DNA from: Bacteroidales bacterium
Lineage (GTDB): Bacteria > Bacteroidota > Bacteroidia > Bacteroidales > UBA1402
Length of the DNA stretch: 64,000 nucleotides
Direction of reading: 5' to 3'
Assembly: GCA_028694375.1 (NCBI GenBank)
Contig: JAQUTN010000002.1
Coordinates: forward strand, 139 to 64,138
In this document: in pieces, positions 15,165 through 63,918 of the stretch
Layout of the letters: each line of letters starts with the position of its first letter
Position numbering within the stretch: the stretch's first letter is position 1
Notes under the pieces: generated by a model
Database searches by the model: none
What the model saw: only the letters and a program-made list of their open reading frames with translations
Told to the model about the DNA's origin: nothing
Program-made: the position numbers and the translations under genes

Positions 15165-15371
15165 AATTTAAAAATTTAGGGTTCCCGCCATAATAACTTC
15201 AAGAAACGCGGAAACCCCTCATCGTTTCTGGAAGCCGAGATGTTTGATTGTGTTTGCCCTACATGCACAATGTTTTCAAAAACACGATGACACCGCGTGC
15301 TGATCGAGTGTTAAGAAGAAAAAGGGATCCTTGGGGAAATCTTTTTCAGCTCTTGCTCCCGAAAGCTTTGA

Positions 15372-15545
15372 AAATAGCAACCGGCAGGTTTTCTGACTTG
15401 ATTCACTTTGTCACCTTCCCATCTTTTACAGACAGTGGTTTGAAAAAACAAAGCCTTGAAAGAATCTTACAGCAGCGGGCACTGTTCCGGATTTGCACCG
15501 GATTCCCTTTTATGTCGGTTCCGAAAGAACAGACATCACCAGTCG
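15372..15545 (-). promoter_or_regulatory. cobalamin (B12) riboswitch aptamer
   Basis: Minus strand: AAAAGGGAAUCCGGUGCAAAUCCGGAACAGU (15511-15481), GCCCGCUGCUGUAAG (15480-15466), ACCACUGUC (15439-15431), GGGAAGGUGAC (15420-15410), and B12-box-like AGUCAGAAAACCUGCCGG (15398-15381). These are the conserved cobalamin-riboswitch blocks in the right order. Confidence 0.9.
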
Positions 15546-15549
15546 GCTG

Positions 15550-15557
15550 CAAAGTTA
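15550..15557 (-). promoter_or_regulatory. candidate -7 box (TAACTTTG) driving the cobalamin riboswitch transcript
   Basis: The minus strand reads gatTAACTTTGcagccgactggtgatg, so the aptamer begins a few nt downstream. Confidence 0.5.
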
Positions 15558-15614
15558 ATCATCTTTGTAAAATGAAGAAAAAAAAACGTTTTTTTTTAAT
15601 AGCTTTATTTTGCT

Positions 15615-17199: not shown

Positions 17200-17958
17200 T
17201 TATTTGTCTTTTAAATCACCTAAGGGGAAAAAGGGAAACATATTTTCGACCATCCATCGGTTGGCTTGCACAGGACTCATTTTCCAGCCCGAATTACAGG
17301 TAGAAACAACCTCGACTATGCTGGTACCTTTGCCCTCCATGGAATTCTCAAAGGCTTTGCGGATGGCTTTTTTGGTTTTCTTGACTGCAACGGCCGTATG
17401 GACACTTTGACGGGTTACGTAACAGGTACCTTCGAGTTCAGCCAGCAAGTTGGTGATTTTGAGTGGATAACCGTTTAAGGCTACGTTTCTTCCGTAAGGA
17501 CAAGTGGAAGTCTTCATGGCGTTCAGGGTGGTGGGGGCCATTTGCCCGCCGGTCATTCCATAAATTCCATTGTTGATGAAAATGATGGCAATGTTTTCGC
17601 CCCTGTTGCAGGCATGGATGGTTTCGGCGGTACCAATGGCGGCCAGATCGCCGTCTCCCTGGTAGGTGAACACCAGTTTGTCGGGGCGCAGACGCTTCAT
17701 GGCAGTGGCCAAAGCAGGCGCTCTGCCGTGAGCTGATTCAGCAAAATCCACATCGATGTATTTGTAAATGAAGACTGCGCAACCCACCGGAGCCACACCC
17801 ATGGCTTTATCTTCCATGCCCATTTCCTCAATTACTTCGGCTATAATGTGATGTACAGTGCCGTGGCTGCAGCCGGGACAATAATGCATCACATTATCCT
17901 TGATTAGTTTTGATTTTTCGTACACCAGGTTTTCGGGTGCAATTATGGGATTGTTCAT
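17200..17958 (-). CDS. 2-oxoacid:ferredoxin oxidoreductase beta (TPP-binding) subunit
   Basis: ORF 17200-18033, start moved to ATG 17958 (MNNPIIAPENLVY). CPGCSHG and GDGDLAAIG TPP motifs. Confidence 0.85.
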   Translation of the reverse strand: MNNPIIAPENLVYEKSKLIKDNVMHYCPGCSHGTVHHIIAEVIEEMGMEDKAMGVAPVGCAVFIYKYIDVDFAESAHGRAPALATAMKRLRPDKLVFTYQGDGDLAAIGTAETIHACNRGENIAIIFINNGIYGMTGGQMAPTTLNAMKTSTCPYGRNVALNGYPLKITNLLAELEGTCYVTRQSVHTAVAVKKTKKAIRKAFENSMEGKGTSIVEVVSTCNSGWKMSPVQANRWMVENMFPFFPLGDLKDK

Positions 17959-17959
17959 A

Positions 17960-18130
17960 TTATTTCTTTTTTCGTATACGTAAAATGATTTCAGCCAGTT
18001 TGCAAAGCACTGCCGCAATACCGGAGGCGGCAAACCAGAAAAACAGACCGGAAAAATAACAGACTATGGATACAACTGCCAGCATAATGGCCAGAATGGA
18101 CAAAGTGTATTTTAAGCCTTGCAAATCCAT
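17960..18130 (-). CDS. 56-aa hydrophobic membrane protein embedded in the oxidoreductase operon
   Basis: MDLQGLKYTLSILAIMLAVVSIVCYFSGLFFWFAASGIAAVLCKLAEIILRIRKKK. ATG 18130 lies 1 nt after the alpha-subunit stop (TGAtATG), and its own stop lies 1 nt before the beta-subunit ATG (TAAtATG). The ORF-track version (to 18160) uses a TTG inside the alpha gene. Confidence 0.55.
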   Translation of the reverse strand: MDLQGLKYTLSILAIMLAVVSIVCYFSGLFFWFAASGIAAVLCKLAEIILRIRKKK

Positions 18131-22088: not shown

Positions 22089-22165
22089 GGCCCCGTAGCT
22101 TAATTGAATAGAGCATCTGACTACGGATCAGAAGGTTACAGGTTTGAATCCTGTCGGGGTCACCA
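22089..22165 (+). tRNA. tRNA-Arg (anticodon ACG), CCA encoded
   Basis: Hand-folded cloverleaf: acceptor GGCCCCG/CGGGGTC, D arm GCTT-AATTGAATA-GAGC, anticodon arm TCTGA-CTACGGA-TCAGA, T arm ACAGG-TTTGAAT-CCTGT, then ACCA. Confidence 0.85.
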
Positions 22166-52492: not shown

Positions 52493-52565
52493 GCGAAAAT
52501 AGCTCAGTTGGTAGAGCATAACCTTGCCAAGGTTAGGGTCGCGGGTTCGAGTCCCGTTTTTCGCT
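52493..52565 (+). tRNA. tRNA-Gly (anticodon GCC)
   Basis: Acceptor GCGAAAA/TTTTCGC, D arm GCTC-AGTTGGTA-GAGC, anticodon loop TTGCCAA, T arm GCGGG-TTCGAGT-CCCGT. CCA is not encoded. Confidence 0.9.
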
Positions 52566-52571
52566 CTACAA

Positions 52572-52599
52572 AGTAGCGACAGCGGTCGCTATTATTTTT
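52572..52599 (+). terminator. terminator-like hairpin between tRNA-Gly and tRNA-Leu
   Basis: tagcgac (52574-52580), agcg, gtcgcta (52585-52591), then ttattttt. Confidence 0.5.
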
Positions 52600-52643
52600 G
52601 GGAAGACTTCTGGTCTCTCAAATTTCCCTCTAAGAGAATACGA

Positions 52644-52727
52644 ACCCAGGTGGTGGAATTGGTAGACACGCTACTTTGAGGGGGTAGTGGGCGTTCGCTC
52701 GTGTGAGTTCGAGTCTCATCCTGGGTA
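52644..52727 (+). tRNA. tRNA-Leu (anticodon GAG), long variable arm
   Basis: Acceptor ACCCAGG/CCTGGGT, anticodon arm CTACT-TTGAGGG-GGTAG, variable arm TGGGCGTTCGCTCGT, T arm GTGAG-TTCGAGT-CTCAT. Confidence 0.85.
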
Positions 52728-52746
52728 CTTTTCCCTGCATCATCCT

Positions 52747-52830
52747 GCCCAGATGGTGAAATTGGTAGACACGCTAGTTTCAGGGACTAGTGGCCGCAAG
52801 GCTGTGCAGGTTCGAGTCCTGTTCTGGGCA
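52747..52830 (+). tRNA. tRNA-Leu (anticodon CAG), long variable arm
   Basis: Acceptor GCCCAGA/TCTGGGC, anticodon arm CTAGT-TTCAGGG-ACTAG, variable arm TGGCCGCAAGGCTGT, T arm GCAGG-TTCGAGT-CCTGT. Confidence 0.9.
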
Positions 52831-52835
52831 CAAAT

Positions 52836-55952: not shown

Positions 55953-57518
55953 ATGAATTATTTTGTATTAGGATTGATTGTATTACTTTATCTGTTTACG
56001 CTGGCAGCCATCAGCTGGTACGCCTACAAAAATACCAGGAATGCCAACGACTACATGATAGGCGGCGGTAATATGAGTTCTACAGTGATGGCTTTGTCGT
56101 ATGGGGCTACTTTTATTTCGGCATCGGCCATTGTAGGCTTCGGTGGTGTTTCTGCTGCTTATGGTATGGGTATTCAATGGCTTTGCCTCTTAAACATTTT
56201 GATAGGAGTAATTATTGCCTTTATCTTTTTCGGCAAAAAAACCCGTAAGTTGGGTGCAGAACTTCAAGCTAAGACTTTTCCACAGCTGCTGGGTGCTTAT
56301 TTTCAATCCAAACCCATACAAGTAATAGCCGCTACAGTGATTTTGCTTGGTATGCCTTTGTACGCCGCAGTTGTTATGAAAGGCGGTGCGGTGTTTATCG
56401 AACAGATTTTCAATATCAATTACAATATTGCCTTGCTTATTTTTACTCTGATTACAGCATTGTACGTTATCAGCGGTGGCATGAAAGGCGTGATGTATAC
56501 TTCGGCTTTTCAGGCCGTAGTCATGTTTATCTGTATGTTTTTTATGCTGTTTGGCCTATATAAAGCCTTGGGTATGGGTTTTTCCGAAGCTAACAGAGCC
56601 CTTGATGCTATGGATAGCCTGGTTCCTTCCAATTTTGCCTCGCTGGGGCATCAGGGCTGGGCCAAGATGCCTGTGTTGGGATCACCTCAATGGTATACAT
56701 TGGTAACTTCACTTATTTTAGGCGTCGGCATCGGTTGCCTGGCTCAACCTCAACTGGTGGTGCGTTTTCTGACGGTACGCAGCAGCAAACAATTGAATCA
56801 GGGTATTTTTGTCGGATCTTTGTTTCTTCTCATAACCGTGGGTGTGGTTTACCATGCCGGAGCCTTATCCAATTTATTCTTTTTGAAACACAACGGACAA
56901 GTGGCTACGGAATATATATCGGACATCGACAAAATCATTCCGGCCTTTATTAATGCGGCTATGCCCAATTGGTTTACAGCCTTGTTTATGCTGAGTATTT
57001 TATCGGCCAGCATGTCAACGCTGAGTTCTCAGTTTCACGTTATGGGGACTTCGGCCGCTTCGGATATCTATGCTGATGTTGTACGCAAAAAGGAACGCAA
57101 AAGCATTACCCGCCTGGTTAAAATAGGCGTGTTGGTATCCATTCTGATCAGTTATGTCATTTGCTATACGCTCAAAGAAGGCGTAATTGCGCGGGGCACG
57201 GCTATTTTTATGGGCTTGTGTGCAGCCACTTTCCTTCCTGCCTATTTTTGTATGCTCTATTGGAAAAAAACAAGTAGCAAAGCTGTGTTGTGGAGTATGG
57301 TGGCAGGGGCCGGCGGCAGTGTGTTTGCCCTAGTGTTTTTGCATCAAAAAGAAGCGGCAGCTATAGGTTTGTGTCAGGCAATTTTCGGACGGCCGGTATT
57401 GATCGAGGCTCATCCCTGGCCAATGATCGATCCTATCTTATTTGCCCTGCCCTTGTCGATAGTGGTAATTGTCCTTGTTAGTTTATTAAGCCGCAAACAA
57501 GGACAAAAGCCTGCTTAA
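55953..57518 (+). CDS. sodium:solute symporter (SSS) family transporter
   Basis: Start moved to ATG 55953 (MNYFVLGLIVLLYLF). About 13 hydrophobic segments and an early YMIGGGNMS motif. Confidence 0.8.
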   Translation: MNYFVLGLIVLLYLFTLAAISWYAYKNTRNANDYMIGGGNMSSTVMALSYGATFISASAIVGFGGVSAAYGMGIQWLCLLNILIGVIIAFIFFGKKTRKLGAELQAKTFPQLLGAYFQSKPIQVIAATVILLGMPLYAAVVMKGGAVFIEQIFNINYNIALLIFTLITALYVISGGMKGVMYTSAFQAVVMFICMFFMLFGLYKALGMGFSEANRALDAMDSLVPSNFASLGHQGWAKMPVLGSPQWYTLVTSLILGVGIGCLAQPQLVVRFLTVRSSKQLNQGIFVGSLFLLITVGVVYHAGALSNLFFLKHNGQVATEYISDIDKIIPAFINAAMPNWFTALFMLSILSASMSTLSSQFHVMGTSAASDIYADVVRKKERKSITRLVKIGVLVSILISYVICYTLKEGVIARGTAIFMGLCAATFLPAYFCMLYWKKTSSKAVLWSMVAGAGGSVFALVFLHQKEAAAIGLCQAIFGRPVLIEAHPWPMIDPILFALPLSIVVIVLVSLLSRKQGQKPA

Positions 57519-57627
57519 TGTTTGTTTATTAAGGCAATTTATTGTTGATTTGCGGGAACAAAAACAAAGAGAGCTCGAAACAGCTTGATTTGAACAGGAT
57601 GGCTAAGGATTGCTTTTTTAATTGGCT

Positions 57628-58728
57628 ATGGTAAAATACCTGGATCTGCAGGGGATAACTGCTAAGTACGCAGATGAGATTCATCAGGCTGTCGCTCGGG
57701 TTACCGACTCGGGTTGGTATCTTCAGGGCGAAGAAAACAAACGCTTCGAACAGCATTATGCCGAATACATCGGAACCAGGCATTGTATTGGGGTGGCTAA
57801 CGGCCTGGATGCTCTGATCTGGATTTTGAGGGCTTACATAGAGATGGGCTTTATGCATCCGGGTGACGAAGTGCTGGTACCTGCCAATACTTACATAGCC
57901 TCCATTCTGGCTATTACCGAAAATGGACTTAAGCCTGTTTTGATCGAACCCCGGCTTTTGAGTTATCAGATTGACGAGGATTTAATCGAACAACATATTA
58001 CTGAACGCAGCAAGGCGCTTATGATTGTTCATCTCTATGGCCAATGTGCTTTCAGTGACAAAATTAAGGCTCTCTGCCTGCGTTACGGGCTTAAACTGAT
58101 AGAAGATAATGCTCAGGCTCACGGCTGCGTTTACAGGGGCCGCAAAACGGGTTCCCTGGGTGATGCTGCCGGGCATAGTTTTTATCCGGGTAAAAATCTG
58201 GGGGCTTTTGGGGACGGAGGTGCTGTTACTACCGATGACGAGGAGTTGGCAACTATTGTACGTACGCTGGCCAATTACGGGTCCGAAAAGAAATACGTTT
58301 TCAGGTATACCGGCCGTAACAGCCGGCTTGACGAGATTCAGGCGGCTGTACTGGATGTTAAGCTTCGCTATCTGGATCAGGACATTGAATTGCGCAAACA
58401 AGTAGCTGCCCGTTATTTGCAGGAGATCCGGCATTCCGAAATACAACTGCCTGTTGTGACTGACCGCGATCAACACGTTTATCATATTTTTCCGATTCGT
58501 TGCAAGCGTCGTGAGGCCTTGCAATTGTTTTTGGAAAGCAGGGGAATTCAAACGCTGATTCACTACCCTATTCCTCCTCATAAACAGGCCTGTTACCCGG
58601 AATGGAATAACTTGTCTCTGCCTGTTACCGAACAAATTCACCGCGAAGAACTCAGTTTGCCCTTGAGTCCGGTCATGACCAGTGAAGAAATTGATGAGGT
58701 CATTGCTGCGGTGAACTCTTTCAAGTAA
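57628..58728 (+). CDS. DegT/DnrJ/EryC1/StrS-family sugar aminotransferase
   Basis: Start moved to ATG 57628 (MVKYLDLQG). [17 protein letters not shown] and [10 protein letters not shown] (PLP lysine) blocks. Confidence 0.85.
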
Positions 58729-58774
58729 TTTTTTTTGCAGCTCTCCCATCGTTTAGGCTCCTTGTTTTTTTGAG

Positions 58775-59042
58775 ATTCTTGATCTGCAGTACAAAGACTT
58801 ATACAAATTTTCAGAATACCGGAAAGCCTTGCCCGACTAACTAAAATCAAAAAAAGAAAAAGTCAAGGTTTAGAAAAAAGAAATAAACTATATCTTTGAC
58901 ATGCTTAACTGACTAACCAAAAAAGACAGTCAGACACACTAATTGAAACACTACCAAAAGATACGGCTATATAAAGATTGAAGACTGTTACGGCAACAAA
59001 GTGGAATTGATCGAGGTTAAGTCCAAGGGGGTTAAAGAATAA
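58775..59042 (+). pseudogene. 5'-truncated, decayed paralog of the 59129-59773 lipoprotein gene
   Basis: 58775-58811 (attcttgatctgcagtacaaagacttatacaaatttt) aligns to 59600-59636 with 30/37 matches. The last 31 codons read NTTKRYGYIKIEDCYGNKVELIEVKSKGVKE*, against ...KKYGFIMIEGYDGSKVELIEIKSKGVKE* in the intact copy. In-frame TGA at 58944, and no start codon. Confidence 0.6.
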
Positions 59043-59109
59043 AATGTCGGGGTTATTCTGAAGCTGACTCGCACGAATCAACCAACAGAAACCATTAGGT
59101 TAATCATTA
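58998..59109 (+). repeat. direct repeat, left copy (112 nt)
   Basis: Aligns without gaps to 59729-59840 with 102/112 identical (hand count). Covers the last 14 codons of the gene plus 67 nt of downstream spacer. Confidence 0.85.
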
Positions 59110-59128
59110 GACACTAAAAAGAAAGACT

Positions 59129-59773
59129 ATGAAAAATATAAGTAGAAGAATATTAGTGAACCTATTCTTTTGTACCTCTTTGATTTATTTAATGAACGGA
59201 TGCGATTATAATAAAGGAAGAACGAAATACATTCAACTGACTTCCGATGATCTTGCCCATCTCTACATTAATCTGGATACTTTATACTATGATGGTAATG
59301 AAATTGAATATAAAGATTCGATTTTGTTTTTACTAAACTCCGTTGACACCATAACAGTTGGTGTCAGAACTCAAATATGGTCAACGTTAAGTCAATTTGC
59401 GATTTTGGATGTTAGAGATATTACTGGAAAGTCGACAATAAATTTTAATAAAACACCTAGGTTTTATTTTGCAGACATTGAAATTTTTAGAGATGACTAC
59501 ACTTACCCATCAAGAAAGATTTTTACCGCTTCTAAAGGAGACGGAGGTCGTAATCTGGATGAATGGGTAAGGGAAATAAACACTCTTGATACCGCCTGTA
59601 TTCTTGGCCGGCAGTACGAAGACGTTTACAAATTTCTCCCTCCTTCCGAGAATCATGAATCAGGTATTAAAACAGTGTATTTCGCCAAAAAATATGGCTT
59701 TATTATGATTGAGGGCTACGATGGCAGTAAAGTGGAATTGATCGAAATTAAGTCCAAGGGGGTTAAAGAATAA
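59129..59773 (+). CDS. hypothetical lipoprotein (no family recognised)
   Basis: 214 aa. Lipobox LIYLMNGC. Low GC by eye. Flanked by the 112-nt direct repeats. Confidence 0.6.
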   Translation: MKNISRRILVNLFFCTSLIYLMNGCDYNKGRTKYIQLTSDDLAHLYINLDTLYYDGNEIEYKDSILFLLNSVDTITVGVRTQIWSTLSQFAILDVRDITGKSTINFNKTPRFYFADIEIFRDDYTYPSRKIFTASKGDGGRNLDEWVREINTLDTACILGRQYEDVYKFLPPSENHESGIKTVYFAKKYGFIMIEGYDGSKVELIEIKSKGVKE

Positions 59774-59840
59774 AATGTCGGGGTTATTTTGAAGCTGACT
59801 TGCGCTAATCACCCAACGGAAACCCTTAGGTTTATCATTA
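59729..59840 (+). repeat. direct repeat, right copy (112 nt)
   Basis: See the left copy; the offset between copies is 731 nt. Confidence 0.85.
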
Positions 59841-59853
59841 AAACAATTAAGTC

Positions 59854-59922
59854 ATGAGAAAAAAGATTTCTGCCGAGATAAAGGCGCCCGAAGCGCGCAG
59901 GGTCCGGCAAGGTTTTTTGTGA
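59854..59922 (+). pseudogene. 5' stub of a third copy of the lipoprotein gene, running into unrelated GC-rich DNA
   Basis: ATG 59854 sits at the same place relative to the repeat as ATG 59129. MRKKIS... compares with MKNISRR.... After about 8 codons the sequence switches to the GC-rich patch and stops at 59920-59922. Confidence 0.35.
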
Positions 59923-60020
59923 CGGCTCGTCAGAGACTAGCATAAAACGCCGACGTCCAGCGCTGACCAGCCGGGGATATCGGGAGGCTGAGCGGGCTAC
60001 GGTTGAACGGCGGGAAGCGC
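59881..60020. other. 140-nt GC-rich patch (64% G+C) of unknown origin
   Basis: Hand count gives 90 G/C in 140 nt. Neighbouring intergenic and lipoprotein sequence is visibly AT-rich. No ORF with a start codon crosses it. Confidence 0.7.
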
Positions 60021-60026
60021 TGCTAA

Positions 60027-60038
60027 TTAATCGATTAA
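60027..60038. repeat. 12-bp perfect palindrome TTAATCGATTAA
   Basis: Read directly. Flanked by gctg (60020-60023) and cagc (60039-60042), which can extend the stem. It lies 43 nt downstream of the glycosyltransferase stop. Confidence 0.6.
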
Positions 60039-60080
60039 CAGCACAAGCTTTGATTGACGACCTGACTTATCAACTTAGAC

Positions 60081-60923
60081 TTAATCCGGTCGTGTGATGG
60101 CTCTTCTTATTGTGTATAATGCTTTGTAGAGCAAATATTTAGGCCAGCTGAATCTTTTGATGGCCCGGCTCATTTCCAGAGTGGCGCGATTTTCTTTCCG
60201 GGTGGCAGCCAGCGATTTGAGTTGAATAAAATAATGAGCCAGACCTATTTTTCGGGCTCCAATTTGATTTTCGCCGTGCTGACGGTATAAAACGGTGGCT
60301 TCATGTATTGACTCCAGAATTCCGCCTGCCGCTGCCACTTTGAGCGCAATCCATTTATCGTGCATCAGGGCTTTTTCACTGATTGGCAAGGCCAGCTCTT
60401 TGGCTGCCTGGTTAATCATCATGGTACATCCCGTAAAGGCATTGCAAACAGTCAGGTATTCAAAGCTTTTGAGTAAAGCCGGTCTGATTTTGTTATAGGC
60501 CCAAAAGGAAGGGCTGATTTCGTTGAGTTGTTCATCGACAACCTTTAGATCGGTATTAATTACTACGGCTTTACCTGGCTGTGCTTGTTCACAAGCCCGC
60601 ATTTTGGTGTAGGTCTTTTCGATCTTATCGCTCAGCCATACGTCGTCGTGGTCGCAAAACATGTAGTAATCGGCCCGGGTGTTTTCGAGCAACCACATAA
60701 AACTGCCTTTGGCCAGTCTTCCCGGCTGAGGATCCTCGCGCAGGATCAATTTGGCGTGTTTTTGTTGGTATTCGGCCAGTATTTGCAGGGTATCGTCTTT
60801 GGAACCGTCGTCGTGCACATGGATTTCAAAATCCTGCACTGTCTGGGCAAACAGTGAGTCCAGCTGAGGGCGGAGGTATTTCCCGCTGTTGCAGGTGCTT
60901 AGTAGTATTGCTATTCCCGACAT
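60081..60923 (-). CDS. family 2 glycosyltransferase
   Basis: 280 aa. ILLSTCNSGKYLRPQLDSL...HVHDDGSKDDT and a DHDD (DxD-like) motif. Confidence 0.85.
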   Translation of the reverse strand: MSGIAILLSTCNSGKYLRPQLDSLFAQTVQDFEIHVHDDGSKDDTLQILAEYQQKHAKLILREDPQPGRLAKGSFMWLLENTRADYYMFCDHDDVWLSDKIEKTYTKMRACEQAQPGKAVVINTDLKVVDEQLNEISPSFWAYNKIRPALLKSFEYLTVCNAFTGCTMMINQAAKELALPISEKALMHDKWIALKVAAAGGILESIHEATVLYRQHGENQIGARKIGLAHYFIQLKSLAATRKENRATLEMSRAIKRFSWPKYLLYKALYTIRRAITRPD

Positions 60924-60925
60924 GT

Positions 60926-62740
60926 TTATTCAAAAAACGGCAGCGCAAAAACGGCATAGCCTTTAAGTGTACTAAAATCTTTGACGTGCTCTTTGGCAAA
61001 AAAGAAAGAGAATGGAGACAACTTATCCAGTCCGGAATAGTTGAAAGACAACTTTTGCCAGCTTCCTTTTTGGCTTAAATCGTATGCATCCGAAAAATTT
61101 TGTCCTGTAGAAGAGTTTGTAAAGATTTGTACGTGAACTCCGTCAAAATCTTCGCTGACATAACACCAGGTCGAAAATTTACCCTCTCCCGGACCGGGTT
61201 GATAAAATCCGGTTAAAAATTCGATCCGGTCGTATTGAGGCTGGTAGTAGCCAATACAAGTTGATGATATCTTATATCCCCAACAGCCCTGTAATTCTTC
61301 GGGAGGGTTGCCCGGCAATTGCTTGATTAATTCGTAGTTGTTGGTGGCGTAAGTGCCAGGATCTTTTGGATCATAGCCCTGTTTTCCATAGAGCGGATAA
61401 CTAAAAACCACCAGAGCCATCAATACCATGGCCACGTTAACAAGCATAGCCGTCTTACATAATCCGTCGGGTAAAGACAGGTATTCTTCTTTGCGACTTC
61501 TTGTTTTGGACAAAAACAAAAAGCTCAGGCTAAAGACCAGCAAGCCTCCTATTTGCAGGAAAACCACTTCTACCATCATCAGCATGGCGAACATAAAACT
61601 AATGGTGCCTGCGTACAATCGCTCTTTTTTGTCGCGAAGACTGAGCGGAAATGCTATGAGCAACATCAATAAACAAAGCAGTCCCGGAATTCCGGTTTCC
61701 AACAATACTTGCAGATAGGTGTTGTGCACATGTGAATTGCTTTCAACTAATTGGGTACTTAAGCGGTTCTGTATATATTTTTCTTTCAGCAGATCTTTCA
61801 CGTCACCTATACCCACTCCCAACATATACTGCTTGTCTTCTCCCAAAACCTGCAGTCCTGAATACCAGATGCCCAAGCGGGAATCTTTGCTTTGCAGGGA
61901 AGAGTTTTCGGTCAGTTTTCCCGGACGTATTGATTCAAACCGAGGATGATAGGCGTACAGGGCAATCATAGACAATACACCCAACAACATTACCGTCAGG
62001 GCAAATTTGCGATGTTGATGATTGTTTAGTGCATTAAATACATAAAAGGAAGCAACCAGAACCAGTATGATAAGAGCAATCCGTCCACCCAACACCAGCA
62101 TTAGCGAGGTGTAAACAAGAGCATAAATGGTAAAGCACAGCCAATAACACAATTTACCAATTTTGGGAATCAGGTCTTTGCGTAAATACAACAGACTGAG
62201 CAGGGCAAGCATCTGATTAATACCAAAATAAGTCCTGTGTTTGAATTCGAGGAAGAATTGTAAAAAAGCTTTCCAGGGATATTTATGGATCATATTTCGG
62301 CTCTTGAAATCGCTCAGATATTCAATGACAGGTATGCCCAAAGAAAAGAGTAAACTAAATACATTGCCTGCTACAAAAGCCAACAACAAGGGTTTTAGTT
62401 TATACTCTTTGCTGAATCCGATAGAAAGCATCAGGGGTACGATTGCAATAACCACCCTCCTTTCTATGATTTTGTAGGCATATTCCAGATTTTGTGAATA
62501 AAAGACAGAAATAAGCATCAACAGAGCATAAGCCCATAAGATATAGATTACCCAATGCTGTTTGTCGAAGCGAAATTCCAGATAGCGTTTACTGAGAACC
62601 ACATCAATAATCCAGGTAGCTACCCAACAAAAAAAGACCAAAATCAGCCAACGATCCTGTAAGCTCAGGTTAAAAGCCAGCAGTAAGGCAAAATAATAAT
62701 TTAATTTACCTGTGAGGGCTGTAATTTTTGGCATATTCAT
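60926..62740 (-). CDS. O-antigen ligase/polymerase-like (Wzy_C-type) membrane protein with a roughly 160-aa C-terminal soluble domain
   Basis: 604 aa. About 12 hydrophobic segments over residues 1-450, including a periplasmic-loop region (HVHNTYLQVLLETGIPG). The tail is cysteine- and aromatic-rich (...WCYVSEDFDGVHVQIF...GSWQKLSFNYSG...). Confidence 0.65.
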   Translation of the reverse strand: MNMPKITALTGKLNYYFALLLAFNLSLQDRWLILVFFCWVATWIIDVVLSKRYLEFRFDKQHWVIYILWAYALLMLISVFYSQNLEYAYKIIERRVVIAIVPLMLSIGFSKEYKLKPLLLAFVAGNVFSLLFSLGIPVIEYLSDFKSRNMIHKYPWKAFLQFFLEFKHRTYFGINQMLALLSLLYLRKDLIPKIGKLCYWLCFTIYALVYTSLMLVLGGRIALIILVLVASFYVFNALNNHQHRKFALTVMLLGVLSMIALYAYHPRFESIRPGKLTENSSLQSKDSRLGIWYSGLQVLGEDKQYMLGVGIGDVKDLLKEKYIQNRLSTQLVESNSHVHNTYLQVLLETGIPGLLCLLMLLIAFPLSLRDKKERLYAGTISFMFAMLMMVEVVFLQIGGLLVFSLSFLFLSKTRSRKEEYLSLPDGLCKTAMLVNVAMVLMALVVFSYPLYGKQGYDPKDPGTYATNNYELIKQLPGNPPEELQGCWGYKISSTCIGYYQPQYDRIEFLTGFYQPGPGEGKFSTWCYVSEDFDGVHVQIFTNSSTGQNFSDAYDLSQKGSWQKLSFNYSGLDKLSPFSFFFAKEHVKDFSTLKGYAVFALPFFE

Positions 62741-62742
62741 AT

Positions 62743-63828
62743 CTAAAAAATAAGGGAATACTCCTGTATATGTCCCTGAAGGACAAGATTATAATAAAAA
62801 GCAATTCCAACCAGAACAATGATCAGTTCCGGTATCCACCGGGGTTTTATGTAATAGATAAGTGTAGGAATTAAAAATATCTGTACGATGCTCAACATTT
62901 CCCAGAGCCTGAATGCAAATACAGGAAGAGTGAAAAATAAGTAAAATACCCCTATGGAAATCATATTTATTTTCAGAAACAACAGGCTGTATTTGTTCTT
63001 CTCCAGTATATCGGTACGATAAAACAATAAAAATACCGAAAGTAAAAGTTGAAAAATAATCGTCAGATTTATTTTATTTATGGAGTGTTTAAGCCTTAAT
63101 TGCTCTGTGATGTAAATATTCAGTTTCTCGGAGTAAACACCCAAATCGTATTTTAAAAGCAAAGAAATCGGATCAAATTTAAGAGTGCTCAGCAAAAAAG
63201 GGATAATAATAACAGCTATATATACAATCGGATTTATTTTTTTAGTGTTCAAAAAGTAAAAAGGCAAAAATATAAGGGCCGAATAATGAATCAATGTTGC
63301 CAGGAGTATAATCAACAAAAATTTCCCCGCTTTTCTTTCGACCAAAGGCTCGAAAGCCAGCATGACCACAGCAGCTGCCAGTCCTGCACGAACCTGAATG
63401 ATTTCGTGCAGCATAAAAGTATTACAGAGATAAATAAACAGGGAGAAAAAGATGAATTCTGAATATTTAACGATAGCTTTGGCTTTGAGGGCTACAGAAA
63501 AAAGAGCAAACAAGACCATCAAAAGGGTAAATCCCAGTGTGGGCAGATAAGTTTTAATAAAAGAAGCAACTATCAGAAAAGAGGGTTCCACTCTCGCCGC
63601 TTTGAAGAATATACCCGGATTACTGAAAAGTGTTTTGAAAGGCAGGGCTTTGTCGTAAAAAGCCTGAAATATGCTGTGGTCTTTGCTTACATCGTTGCCT
63701 CTGAATCCGGCAAATGCAATTAAAAACAGAACCATTGCCAGCAACAGCCATTGCTTGTTTTTTTTCAGCTCCTCCCCTACGAGAGAGAGTATCAGGAAAA
63801 CAGCAATTATAATAATATAAACAGTCAT
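62743..63828 (-). CDS. EpsG-family polysaccharide polymerase-like membrane protein
   Basis: 361 aa, polytopic. N-terminal region ...FAGFRGNDVSKDHSIFQAFY...RVEPSF resembles EpsG. Confidence 0.65.
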   Translation of the reverse strand: MTVYIIIIAVFLILSLVGEELKKNKQWLLLAMVLFLIAFAGFRGNDVSKDHSIFQAFYDKALPFKTLFSNPGIFFKAARVEPSFLIVASFIKTYLPTLGFTLLMVLFALFSVALKAKAIVKYSEFIFFSLFIYLCNTFMLHEIIQVRAGLAAAVVMLAFEPLVERKAGKFLLIILLATLIHYSALIFLPFYFLNTKKINPIVYIAVIIIPFLLSTLKFDPISLLLKYDLGVYSEKLNIYITEQLRLKHSINKINLTIIFQLLLSVFLLFYRTDILEKNKYSLLFLKINMISIGVFYLFFTLPVFAFRLWEMLSIVQIFLIPTLIYYIKPRWIPELIIVLVGIAFYYNLVLQGHIQEYSLIF

Positions 63829-63918
63829 TTTTTAAAATGAACAATGAATAGTTGAGCAAACCCAAACCTAAACCAGGTTTAGGTCTTTATTAAAATGCAA
63901 ATGTACTATTTTTATGCC

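Follow-up and report, generated by a model that had tools for sequence, protein, structure and literature searches.

A GC-rich patch in a Bacteroidales polysaccharide locus is a truncated, decayed copy of a dispersed structured repeat

We studied a GC-rich patch in 64,000 nucleotides of DNA from a Bacteroidales bacterium (assembly GCA_028694375.1, contig JAQUTN010000002.1, positions 139 to 64,138; this whole stretch is called the window, and positions are counted from its first nucleotide). The patch lies in a polysaccharide-biosynthesis locus, between a low-GC 214-amino-acid open reading frame (ORF) and a convergent gene for a family-2 glycosyltransferase (GT2), and it is one copy, on the plus strand from 59883 to about 60038, of a family of GC-rich, non-coding repeats dispersed in Bacteroidales. 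The GC maximum of the window falls exactly there: the 140 nucleotides from 59883 to 60022 have a GC content of 65.0%, against a mean of 42.5% (standard deviation, 6.0%). Such patches are rare, as the patch value is reached by 0.04% of the 140-nt stretches within the 64 kb. The jump in composition reported in a preliminary description of this DNA thus holds, although its count of 90/140 G+C for 59878-60017 does not, the measured value being 87/140 (62.1%). Elsewhere in the window, a GC content of at least 60% occurs solely at 17582-17755, within a 277-amino-acid minus-strand ORF (17200-18033), and this peak looks like ordinary coding DNA. The six palindromic hexamers previously listed in the patch are all where they were placed, and four further AT-rich ones (at 60024, 60026, 60030, and 60045) raise the number in these 216 nt to 10; across the window, stretches of that length hold 2.97 on average, and 0.2% of them hold at least 10. 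Both the composition jump and the palindrome excess are genuine and non-random. The plus-strand frame from 59882 to 60096 was likewise found to be open over 71 codons with exactly the translation given earlier, to lack ATG, GTG, and TTG near its 5' end, and to overlap the convergent GT2 gene by 16 nt.

More than 60 copies of the family were found, often at the ends of contigs, in Bacteroidales metagenome-assembled genomes (MAGs) and in metagenome contigs from JGI. The 25-mer 59971-59995 occurs without mismatch at 12 loci, mostly contig ends, in 3 Bacteroidales/Porphyromonadaceae MAGs of the species-representative genomes, and the 23-mer 59966-59988 in 42 JGI metagenome contigs. Compared by BLAST with 15 copies in loci L011-L022, the patch was 83 to 93% identical over 59883 to about 60030, and the left edge of the homology was sharp at 59883 in nearly all of them. 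Five Logan contigs all begin at window position 59968, because the first 31-mer containing the copy-specific base 59998 starts there. The family copies are 60 to 66% GC, and both the composition jump and the palindrome excess arise because the element has self-complementary GC-rich stems. Indeed, the palindromic hexamers are by-products of the stems GCGC/GCGC, GCCGGC/GCCGGC, and AGCGCT, and there is no separate cluster of binding sites. Of the three origins that had been left open for the patch, a scar and a structured RNA were both right in spirit, and a protein-binding cluster was wrong.

This family is new, in that it has no Rfam 15 entry and is not in the phage and plasmid collections searched. 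Scanning eight full-copy loci and a single copy returned no Rfam 15 family at the gathering threshold, and none was matched by the patch itself, in which ARAGORN detected neither tRNA nor tmRNA. A full copy and the core pattern had no match in plasmids and phages (BLAST) or in viral contigs (exact scan); the patch gave only a 32-nt chance match to plasmids and phages (E = 0.3). The signature strings of the family were found in no paper of the literature searched. Being small, non-coding, and present at many loci with unrelated flanks, the family resembles transposable elements of the miniature inverted-repeat type (MITEs), and it fragments the assemblies of digester Bacteroidales MAGs.

The 71-codon frame has GC-rich codons and stops inside the convergent gene, and in related loci, described below, a convergent gene overlaps the glycosyltransferase gene by 17 nt. 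The patch could accordingly be read as what is left, at the 3' end, of a protein-coding gene acquired from a high-GC donor, as had been suggested, but the frame has no start codon, no homologue, and no conservation among copies, and the same DNA is found more than 60 times between unrelated genes. Neither the 71-amino-acid frame nor the long minus-strand frame matched any Pfam or NCBIfam family at E≤10. Upstream of the core, the reading differs in 32 other copies, where 1-nt indels lead to three unrelated readings, and Met is absent from all 33 frames compared. The core of the other copies translates as LTSRGYREAER in the corresponding frame because the DNA is invariant there; nucleotide conservation has no codon-position pattern, and the invariant blocks span third positions. 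We thus regard 59882-60096 as a chance open frame over GC-rich non-coding DNA and not a gene, and the probability of the donor-gene reading as negligible. Two variants of it were also rejected. A small ORF of 22 codons at 59854-59922, MRKKISAEIKAPEARRVRQGFL*, could be fused with the 71-amino-acid frame by a frameshift in a T6 run, but the fused peptide had no match at E≤10 among 5.8 billion proteins. Nor did the right part of the frame qualify as a remnant of the 507-amino-acid gene of the related loci: the frame has no similarity to the C terminus of that protein, and tblastn with the protein gave only chance-level matches.

We then turned to the anatomy of the family. Fifty-eight copies were aligned by anchoring on the invariant core, and 32 distinct full-length copies were aligned with MAFFT (alignment A2), from which a covariance model was built. 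This model (R1) gave 65 hits in plus orientation, many of them clipped by contig ends. A full element comprises about 210 nt plus a tail. Its left part reads AAGCG.ACCG..GTGAAAG and is followed by a variable arm, then by CGAAGCCGATATATAGACAC and GGCGCCCGAAGCGCGCAG. The GCCGGC...GCCGGC hairpin comes in two compensated versions, TTTTTTG/CAAAAAA and TTGCCTG/CAGGCAA, and the invariant core, TCCAGCGCTGACCAGCCGGGGATATCGGGAGGCTGAGCGG, is followed by the complementary variable arm. The 3' tail consists of 0 to 4 tandem units of about 24 nt, GGGGAGCGCTGC plus an A-run, or of units of about 49 nt in one subfamily. Strict GGA(A)GCG motifs number 0 to 4 per full copy at a spacing of 23 to 27 nt, with one in the window copy; the total is 88 against a shuffled mean of 3.3. 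The hairpins of the tail are not conserved from unit to unit. Upstream, the sequences of the copies are unrelated, and they have no conserved promoter.

Subfamilies swap modules, and mini-variants and chimeras are common. Mini-variants (L015 2042-2199, L024 3870-3992 and 7503-7615, and L013 4974-5021) retain just a short outer stem and the core hairpin CAGCC-GGGGATATCGGGA-GGCTG; where L020, L033, and L044 carry a full copy at the rubrerythrin locus, L015 carries a mini-variant. Some copies are followed on the 3' side by another, unrelated repeat (...ACGCTACTTTTTGGCCTGCGGCCAAGAAGATAGCGGCGCTCGGCAACGACAAAA...), which is also GC-rich, recurs in tandem about every 80 nt, and could fold into a long hairpin (L015 1261-1397, and past the tail in L032, L037, and L057).

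The element folds into a defined structure. RNAalifold predicted one long imperfect rod of 50 pairs, whose interior of about 130 nt (A2 columns ~33-165) is almost invariant and whose ends are variable. In the sequence-only alignment, 98.1% of the cells are paired, compared with 33 to 45% when the partners are slid; 10 pairs (69 cells) are changed on both sides, and the observed covariation score was reached by 0 of 500 shuffles. The sequence of the outer stem varies by subfamily, and its pairing is maintained by compensatory changes, as in the arm variants GTCCTGCCC/GGGCAGGGC, CCCCGGCCC/GGGTCGGGG, and the 18-bp GCCCGGAAGCGGCCTGCC/GGCAGGCCGCTTCCGGGC, all at the same position. Because identical arm variants recur at unrelated loci, we rejected the idea that the outer stem came from host terminator hairpins split by insertion. 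Rod pairs contain 67 G.U/U.G against 2 A.C/C.A cells, and for the full copy L040 the fold z-score is -4.3 when the plus strand is folded, compared with -0.86 for the minus strand. The G.U excess and the plus-only stability therefore point to selection on the single-stranded form of one strand, which corresponds to the plus strand of the window. The covariance model scores about 25 bits on the reverse strand versus about 240, so the element is not symmetric.

The window copy is a dead, 5'-truncated, and decayed one, covering model positions ~53-209 of ~210 (Table 1). In the 64 kb, the covariance model found it as its only hit, at 59844-60038 (+) with 111.6 bits, where full copies score 190 to 245 bits. 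To the left of model position ~53, the window is unrelated to the element, and hence the outer helices have lost their 5' arms. In full copies, A2 columns 165-177 pair with columns 24-35 to form the outer stem P1, with 7 covarying pairs; at the position of the P1 5' arm, the window has the insertion sequence (IS) fragment described below and other sequence instead. Hairpin B, which covaries in the family (two of its pairs are C-G in 19 copies and U-A in 13), has three broken pairs in the covariance-model alignment of the window copy (TCCGGC/GCCGAC and TTTTTTG/CATAAAA). The columns of the core are invariant in A2. The stretch 59883-60040 folds with z = -0.08, no better than shuffles, and the 322-nt intergenic region folded as a whole is unremarkable (z = -1.2 and -1.8 on the two strands).

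Table 1. Features of the patch and its surroundings (positions in the window)
Feature	Position	Strand	Detail
Lineage-specific 1.4-kb segment of the polysaccharide-biosynthesis locus	58729..60131		No sister-locus DNA homology
214-amino-acid ORF, low GC, lipoprotein-like N terminus (...LMNGC)	59129..59773	+	No family match
67-bp direct repeat of 59043-59109	59774..59840	+	88% identity
IS3-family internal fragment	59836..59885	+	18 nt of leader and first 11 orfA codons (MRKKISAEIKA)
71-codon start-less frame	59882..60096	+	Chance open frame
5'-truncated decayed repeat copy	59883..60038	+	BLAST 83-93%, covariance model
Hairpin B	59903..59954	+	Consensus GCCGGC..TTTTTTG..apical GGCTCG-CAGAGAC..CAAAAAA..GCCGGC
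Near-invariant core TCCAGCGCTGACCAGCCGGGGATATCGGGAGGCTGAGCGGG	59955..59997	+	Holds local hairpin CAGCC-GGGGATATCGGGA-GGCTG
Orphan 3' arm of outer stem P1, CTACGGTTGAAC	59998..60009	+	5' partner lost by truncation
Tail	60010..60050	+	Unit GGCGGGAAGCGCTGC + TAATTAAT, then degenerate second unit AACAGCACAAGCTTTGA
Family-2 glycosyltransferase	60081..60923	-	Pfam PF00535

Immediately left of the repeat copy, the window matches L013 282-331 with 94% identity over 50 nt. This is the leader and beginning of an IS3-type orfA, whose 95-amino-acid ORF in L013 belongs to Pfam PF01527 HTH_Tnp_1 (31.6 bits; cutoff, 24.1), and the small ORF at 59854-59922 arises from this fragment. Compared with an IS3 element, only these 50 bp are kept, without inverted repeats, orfB, or the frameshift site: neither IS inverted repeats nor orfB were found in the window. 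It is therefore a scar or fragment and not an IS element. The IS3 homology begins at the end of the 67-bp direct repeat, and no sequence is common to the fragment and the ends of the repeat element. The IS3 and repeat homologies share GGC at 59883-59885, and GCCGA.AT lies near the junction in both partners, which fits an illegitimate, microhomology-mediated joining. The window copy may have arrived with, or been shortened by, IS-associated illegitimate recombination.

To place these remnants in the history of the locus, we used as sister loci the contigs of glycosyltransferase homologues, which are 82 to 90% identical. There, the gene order is SSF transporter, FdtA, FdtA, DegT, and a 507/508-amino-acid gene, then the convergent GT2, Wzy, and EpsG genes; the 507/508-amino-acid gene is convergent with the GT2 gene and overlaps it in L068-L070. 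Homology of the window extends to L066 over 56168-57561, 57625-58728, and 60132-63917 and to L068 over 56108-57561, 57620-58728, and 60132-63917, with none in between. The comparison with relatives called for in the preliminary description thus puts the patch in a segment missing from the sister loci, which have the 507-amino-acid gene there, and we conclude that 58729-60131 replaced that gene in the lineage of the window. The segment contains a truncated ORF duplicate, then the 214-amino-acid ORF and the 67-bp repeat; at its right edge lie the IS3 fragment and the broken copy of the structured repeat. The glycosyltransferase, 90% identical to the homologue P0002 up to residue 274, has its last ~17 codons in this segment, as the sister DNA homology stops at 60132. 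On the left, the 67-bp match at 59043-59109 and the adjoining 58950-59042 show that the 3' end of the 214-amino-acid ORF, with the 67 bp downstream of it, has a truncated duplicate directly upstream of that same ORF (the duplicated stretches span 58880-59110 and 59690-59840). Because of this upstream duplicate, the low-GC ORF lies between direct repeats, as after a tandem duplication or a cassette insertion. In addition, the two FdtA-domain genes (~0.9 kb) that separate the SSF transporter and DegT aminotransferase genes in the sister loci are missing from the window, where ~60 bp remain at 57561-57620; this is a second difference in gene content in the same locus.

Taken together, these data make it very probable that the patch is a rearrangement scar in which an IS3 fragment is joined to a decayed member of a new structured-repeat family. 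A fuller account, in which a dead repeat copy and an IS3 piece lie in a replaced segment and the family is a repeat copied in trans, is likely as a whole. For the family itself, we put at about even the chances that it is a repeat without autonomy, spread in trans in the form of a single-stranded hairpin. The family would then be a selfish repeat of the REP/REPIN/BOX type, the single-stranded hairpin (DNA or RNA) would be recognized and copied by an enzyme encoded elsewhere in the genome, and subfamilies would recombine with one another. The window copy would have no present function, except possibly that of giving the convergent glycosyltransferase operon a hairpin at its 3' end.

Among known elements, the family comes closest to the structured intergenic repeats, a heterogeneous class that includes REP/REPIN, BOX, and BrickBuilt. 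Like the REP, BIME, and REPIN sequences of Proteobacteria, which are associated with RAYT (Y1 HUH) transposases, the family is GC-rich, extragenic, multicopy, non-coding, and assembly breaking; as in REP/REPIN sequences, its imperfect palindromes form single-strand hairpins with compensatory changes, and both are non-autonomous and act as single strands. The element is, however, about 210 nt long, compared with 20 to 40 nt for REP and about 100 nt for REPIN sequences; it is not a symmetric inverted pair, its interior rather than the base of the stem is invariant, and a minisatellite follows at its 3' end. The sequences are not similar, and no RAYT-like gene was seen in the flanks surveyed (~275 kb). 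RAYT genes are single copy. With BOX of Streptococcus pneumoniae (boxA-(boxB)n-boxC), the family shares a modular build, a variable-number tandem unit, an intergenic location, a predicted stable RNA structure, and the lack of its own transposase, but the phylum and the sequence are unrelated, the ~24-nt unit of our element lies 3', outside the rod, and covariation and G.U asymmetry are demonstrated for our element. BrickBuilt, or MITEPgRS, of Porphyromonas gingivalis (PMC4596501) is also a non-coding, multicopy, minisatellite-bearing Bacteroidales repeat that causes assembly gaps. It consists of 23-nt or 41-nt bricks (brick AGAYCATARTATCCTCTCRTRTG) and is bounded by terminal inverted repeats of fixed sequence, GAGACCTTTGCA, which match those of ISPg elements (PMC4596501), whereas our family has no fixed terminal inverted repeat, is GC-rich, and forms a covarying rod. 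Homology to BrickBuilt was excluded, neither its terminal repeat nor its brick sequences being in this family.

The same structural data can be read differently, namely, that the family is a multicopy, trans-acting structured RNA gene (FopS-like or a protein sponge) of which the window copy is a pseudogene, with an invariant interior that binds protein or RNA and a GGA-hairpin tail that titrates an RNA-binding protein. The strand-specific pairing, the very stable plus-strand fold, and the invariant interior and loops next to a covarying closing stem are in agreement with this, as is the excess of GGA(A)GCG motifs, and RbpB-bound multicopy small-RNA families do exist in Bacteroides (PMC11697453). 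Like those FopS/GibS RNAs, the element is paralogous, non-coding, present many times per Bacteroidales genome, and mostly intergenic. FopS RNAs, however, are 65 to 70 nt long, with their own sigma-ABfr promoters and terminators and a 5' seed (PMC11697453), whereas our element is longer (~210 nt), GC-rich, and without a conserved promoter, and a plus-strand terminator follows the tail in only 1 of 40 copies. The tail of L040 is weakly CsrB-like (21.3 bits and E = 4e-4 for a 351-nt query); this CsrB/RsmB match, at L040 2709-2767, comprises a GGA-loop hairpin, an A-rich linker, and a terminal hairpin. Its score is nevertheless far below the gathering score of 71, the copies have only 0 to 4 GGA units, and CsrA is reported to be missing from Bacteroides (PMC13370968). 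Since the repeat-like assembly breaks and the common mini-variants and chimeras also speak against it, we consider the RNA-gene reading doubtful but a live rival.

We next examined the neighbors of the copies, a survey limited to ~275 kb of flanks in fragmented assemblies. Ninety-five neighboring ORFs match 103 Pfam families, including GAPDH, FAD synthetase, rubrerythrin, HipA (HipA_C), KilA-N, PDDEXK nuclease, and Fib_succ_major. Among the 25 most recurrent neighbor families listed, there was no transposase, reverse transcriptase, nuclease, recombinase, or Y1 family, and no protein gene travels with the element. ORFs of ~420 to 440 amino acids that end upstream of some copies suggested TnpB with its omega-RNA, a candidate that was rejected because they read as unrelated proteins. 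Some neighbors match PADLOC candidate defense families (PDC-S01, S02, S13, S22, S41, and PD-DExK), toxin-type domains (HipA and KilA-N) lie beside some copies and housekeeping genes beside others, and one neighbor is AbiEii-like by eye, confirmed by no scan. Where a contig carries two copies, both point the same way on 8 of 9 contigs (L011, L021, L024, L027, L034, L036, L042, and L055; the pair in L015 is inverted), 1.4 to 3.6 kb apart with 1 to 3 genes between them. Several contigs span exactly from copy to copy, which suggests co-oriented arrays.

Such pairs raise the possibility that the elements are attC-like, structure-specific single-strand recombination sites that delimit cassettes, the window copy being the edge of a swapped cassette. 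The genes bracketed by or adjacent to the copies would fit as accessory genes (HipA, KilA-N, PDDEXK nuclease, and candidate defense families, as well as a 359-amino-acid ORF by the L013 copy that is Fic-like by eye only, with a HPFYDGNGRTGR motif), the structure is kept on one selected strand while the sequence of the outer stem varies, and the window copy lies exactly at the edge of the replaced segment. The conservation is reversed, however: attC sites have conserved ends (R/L boxes) and a variable center. Furthermore, neither tyrosine/serine recombinase nor integrase is among the recurrent neighbor families listed, and many copies lie beside housekeeping genes and some beside rRNA or tRNA genes. 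attC sites are roughly 57 to 141 bp long, shorter than our element with its 210 nt and tail. We thus judge this reading very improbable.

Another role would be in cis, the patch being retained as a terminator or 3'-end stabilizer of the glycosyltransferase-Wzy-EpsG operon or of the 214-amino-acid ORF. A minus-strand terminator-like site does exist at 59896-59884 (GCGCTTCGGGCGC then CTTTATCT), but this single match compares with 1.1 expected in shuffles. Family-wide, a hairpin followed by a T-run occurs in the reverse-complemented tail of 9 of 40 copies (plus strand, 1 of 40), and four copies are convergent with, and downstream of, 5S rRNA or tRNA genes. The orientation relative to flanking ORFs is mixed. 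The G.U evidence points to the plus strand and not the strand of the convergent genes as the selected one, and the sister loci function with overlapping convergent genes and without the element, making a cis role improbable. The four copies next to RNA genes (L029 1800-2166, L061 505-1170, L064 5660-5987, and L019 2315-2676) are all convergent with them and lie 50 to 350 nt downstream, either of the 5S rRNA gene that ends an rRNA operon or of a tRNA gene.

Several observations weigh against the preferred reading of the family as a repeat copied in trans. No candidate mobilizing enzyme was seen in the flanking DNA surveyed, and copy numbers per genome derive from fragmented MAGs. Terminal inverted repeats with a fixed sequence were not found, the outermost arms differing by subfamily and covarying, and no related IS was seen. 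By eye, same-subfamily copies show no evident target site duplication at their left (~AATTnCCC) or right edges, the latter being blurred by the tail, and no empty site turned up among rubrerythrin orthologues, where the sole close relative retrieved has the same 478-nt spacer. Moreover, the conservation is the opposite of that of a transposase-recognized MITE: the interior is invariant and the ends covary, which suits a functional RNA no less well. A replication-strand bias, judged from the GC skew of the flanks, was at most weak (32 loci negative and 20 positive, non-independent, with the window opposite).

For the window, the apparent foreign gene remnant turns out to be repeat and IS debris that marks a gene replacement in a surface-polysaccharide locus, and such replacements are how strains diversify their surfaces. 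In the family, the signs that a single-stranded fold is under selection are unusually clear, and the family may shape transcript ends. We find it unlikely that it is instead a new functional ~210-nt rod-shaped single-stranded element of Bacteroidales, either an RNA or a recombination site, but this would be a new player in an order whose post-transcriptional and mobile-DNA biology is poorly known. As an RNA, its invariant loops and GGA tail would bind an RNA-binding protein in a phylum described as lacking Hfq and CsrA. As a recombination site, it would bracket mobile cassettes in co-oriented arrays, and the patch would record the exchange of one cassette for another in a capsule/O-antigen-like locus.

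Elsewhere in the window, Rfam 15 detected a cobalamin riboswitch and four tRNAs, all outside the patch. The riboswitch aptamer lies at 15366-15558 on the minus strand (103.6 bits) and tRNA-Arg(ACG) at 22089-22165, while tRNA-Gly(GCC), tRNA-Leu(GAG), and tRNA-Leu(CAG) are clustered at 52493-52831.

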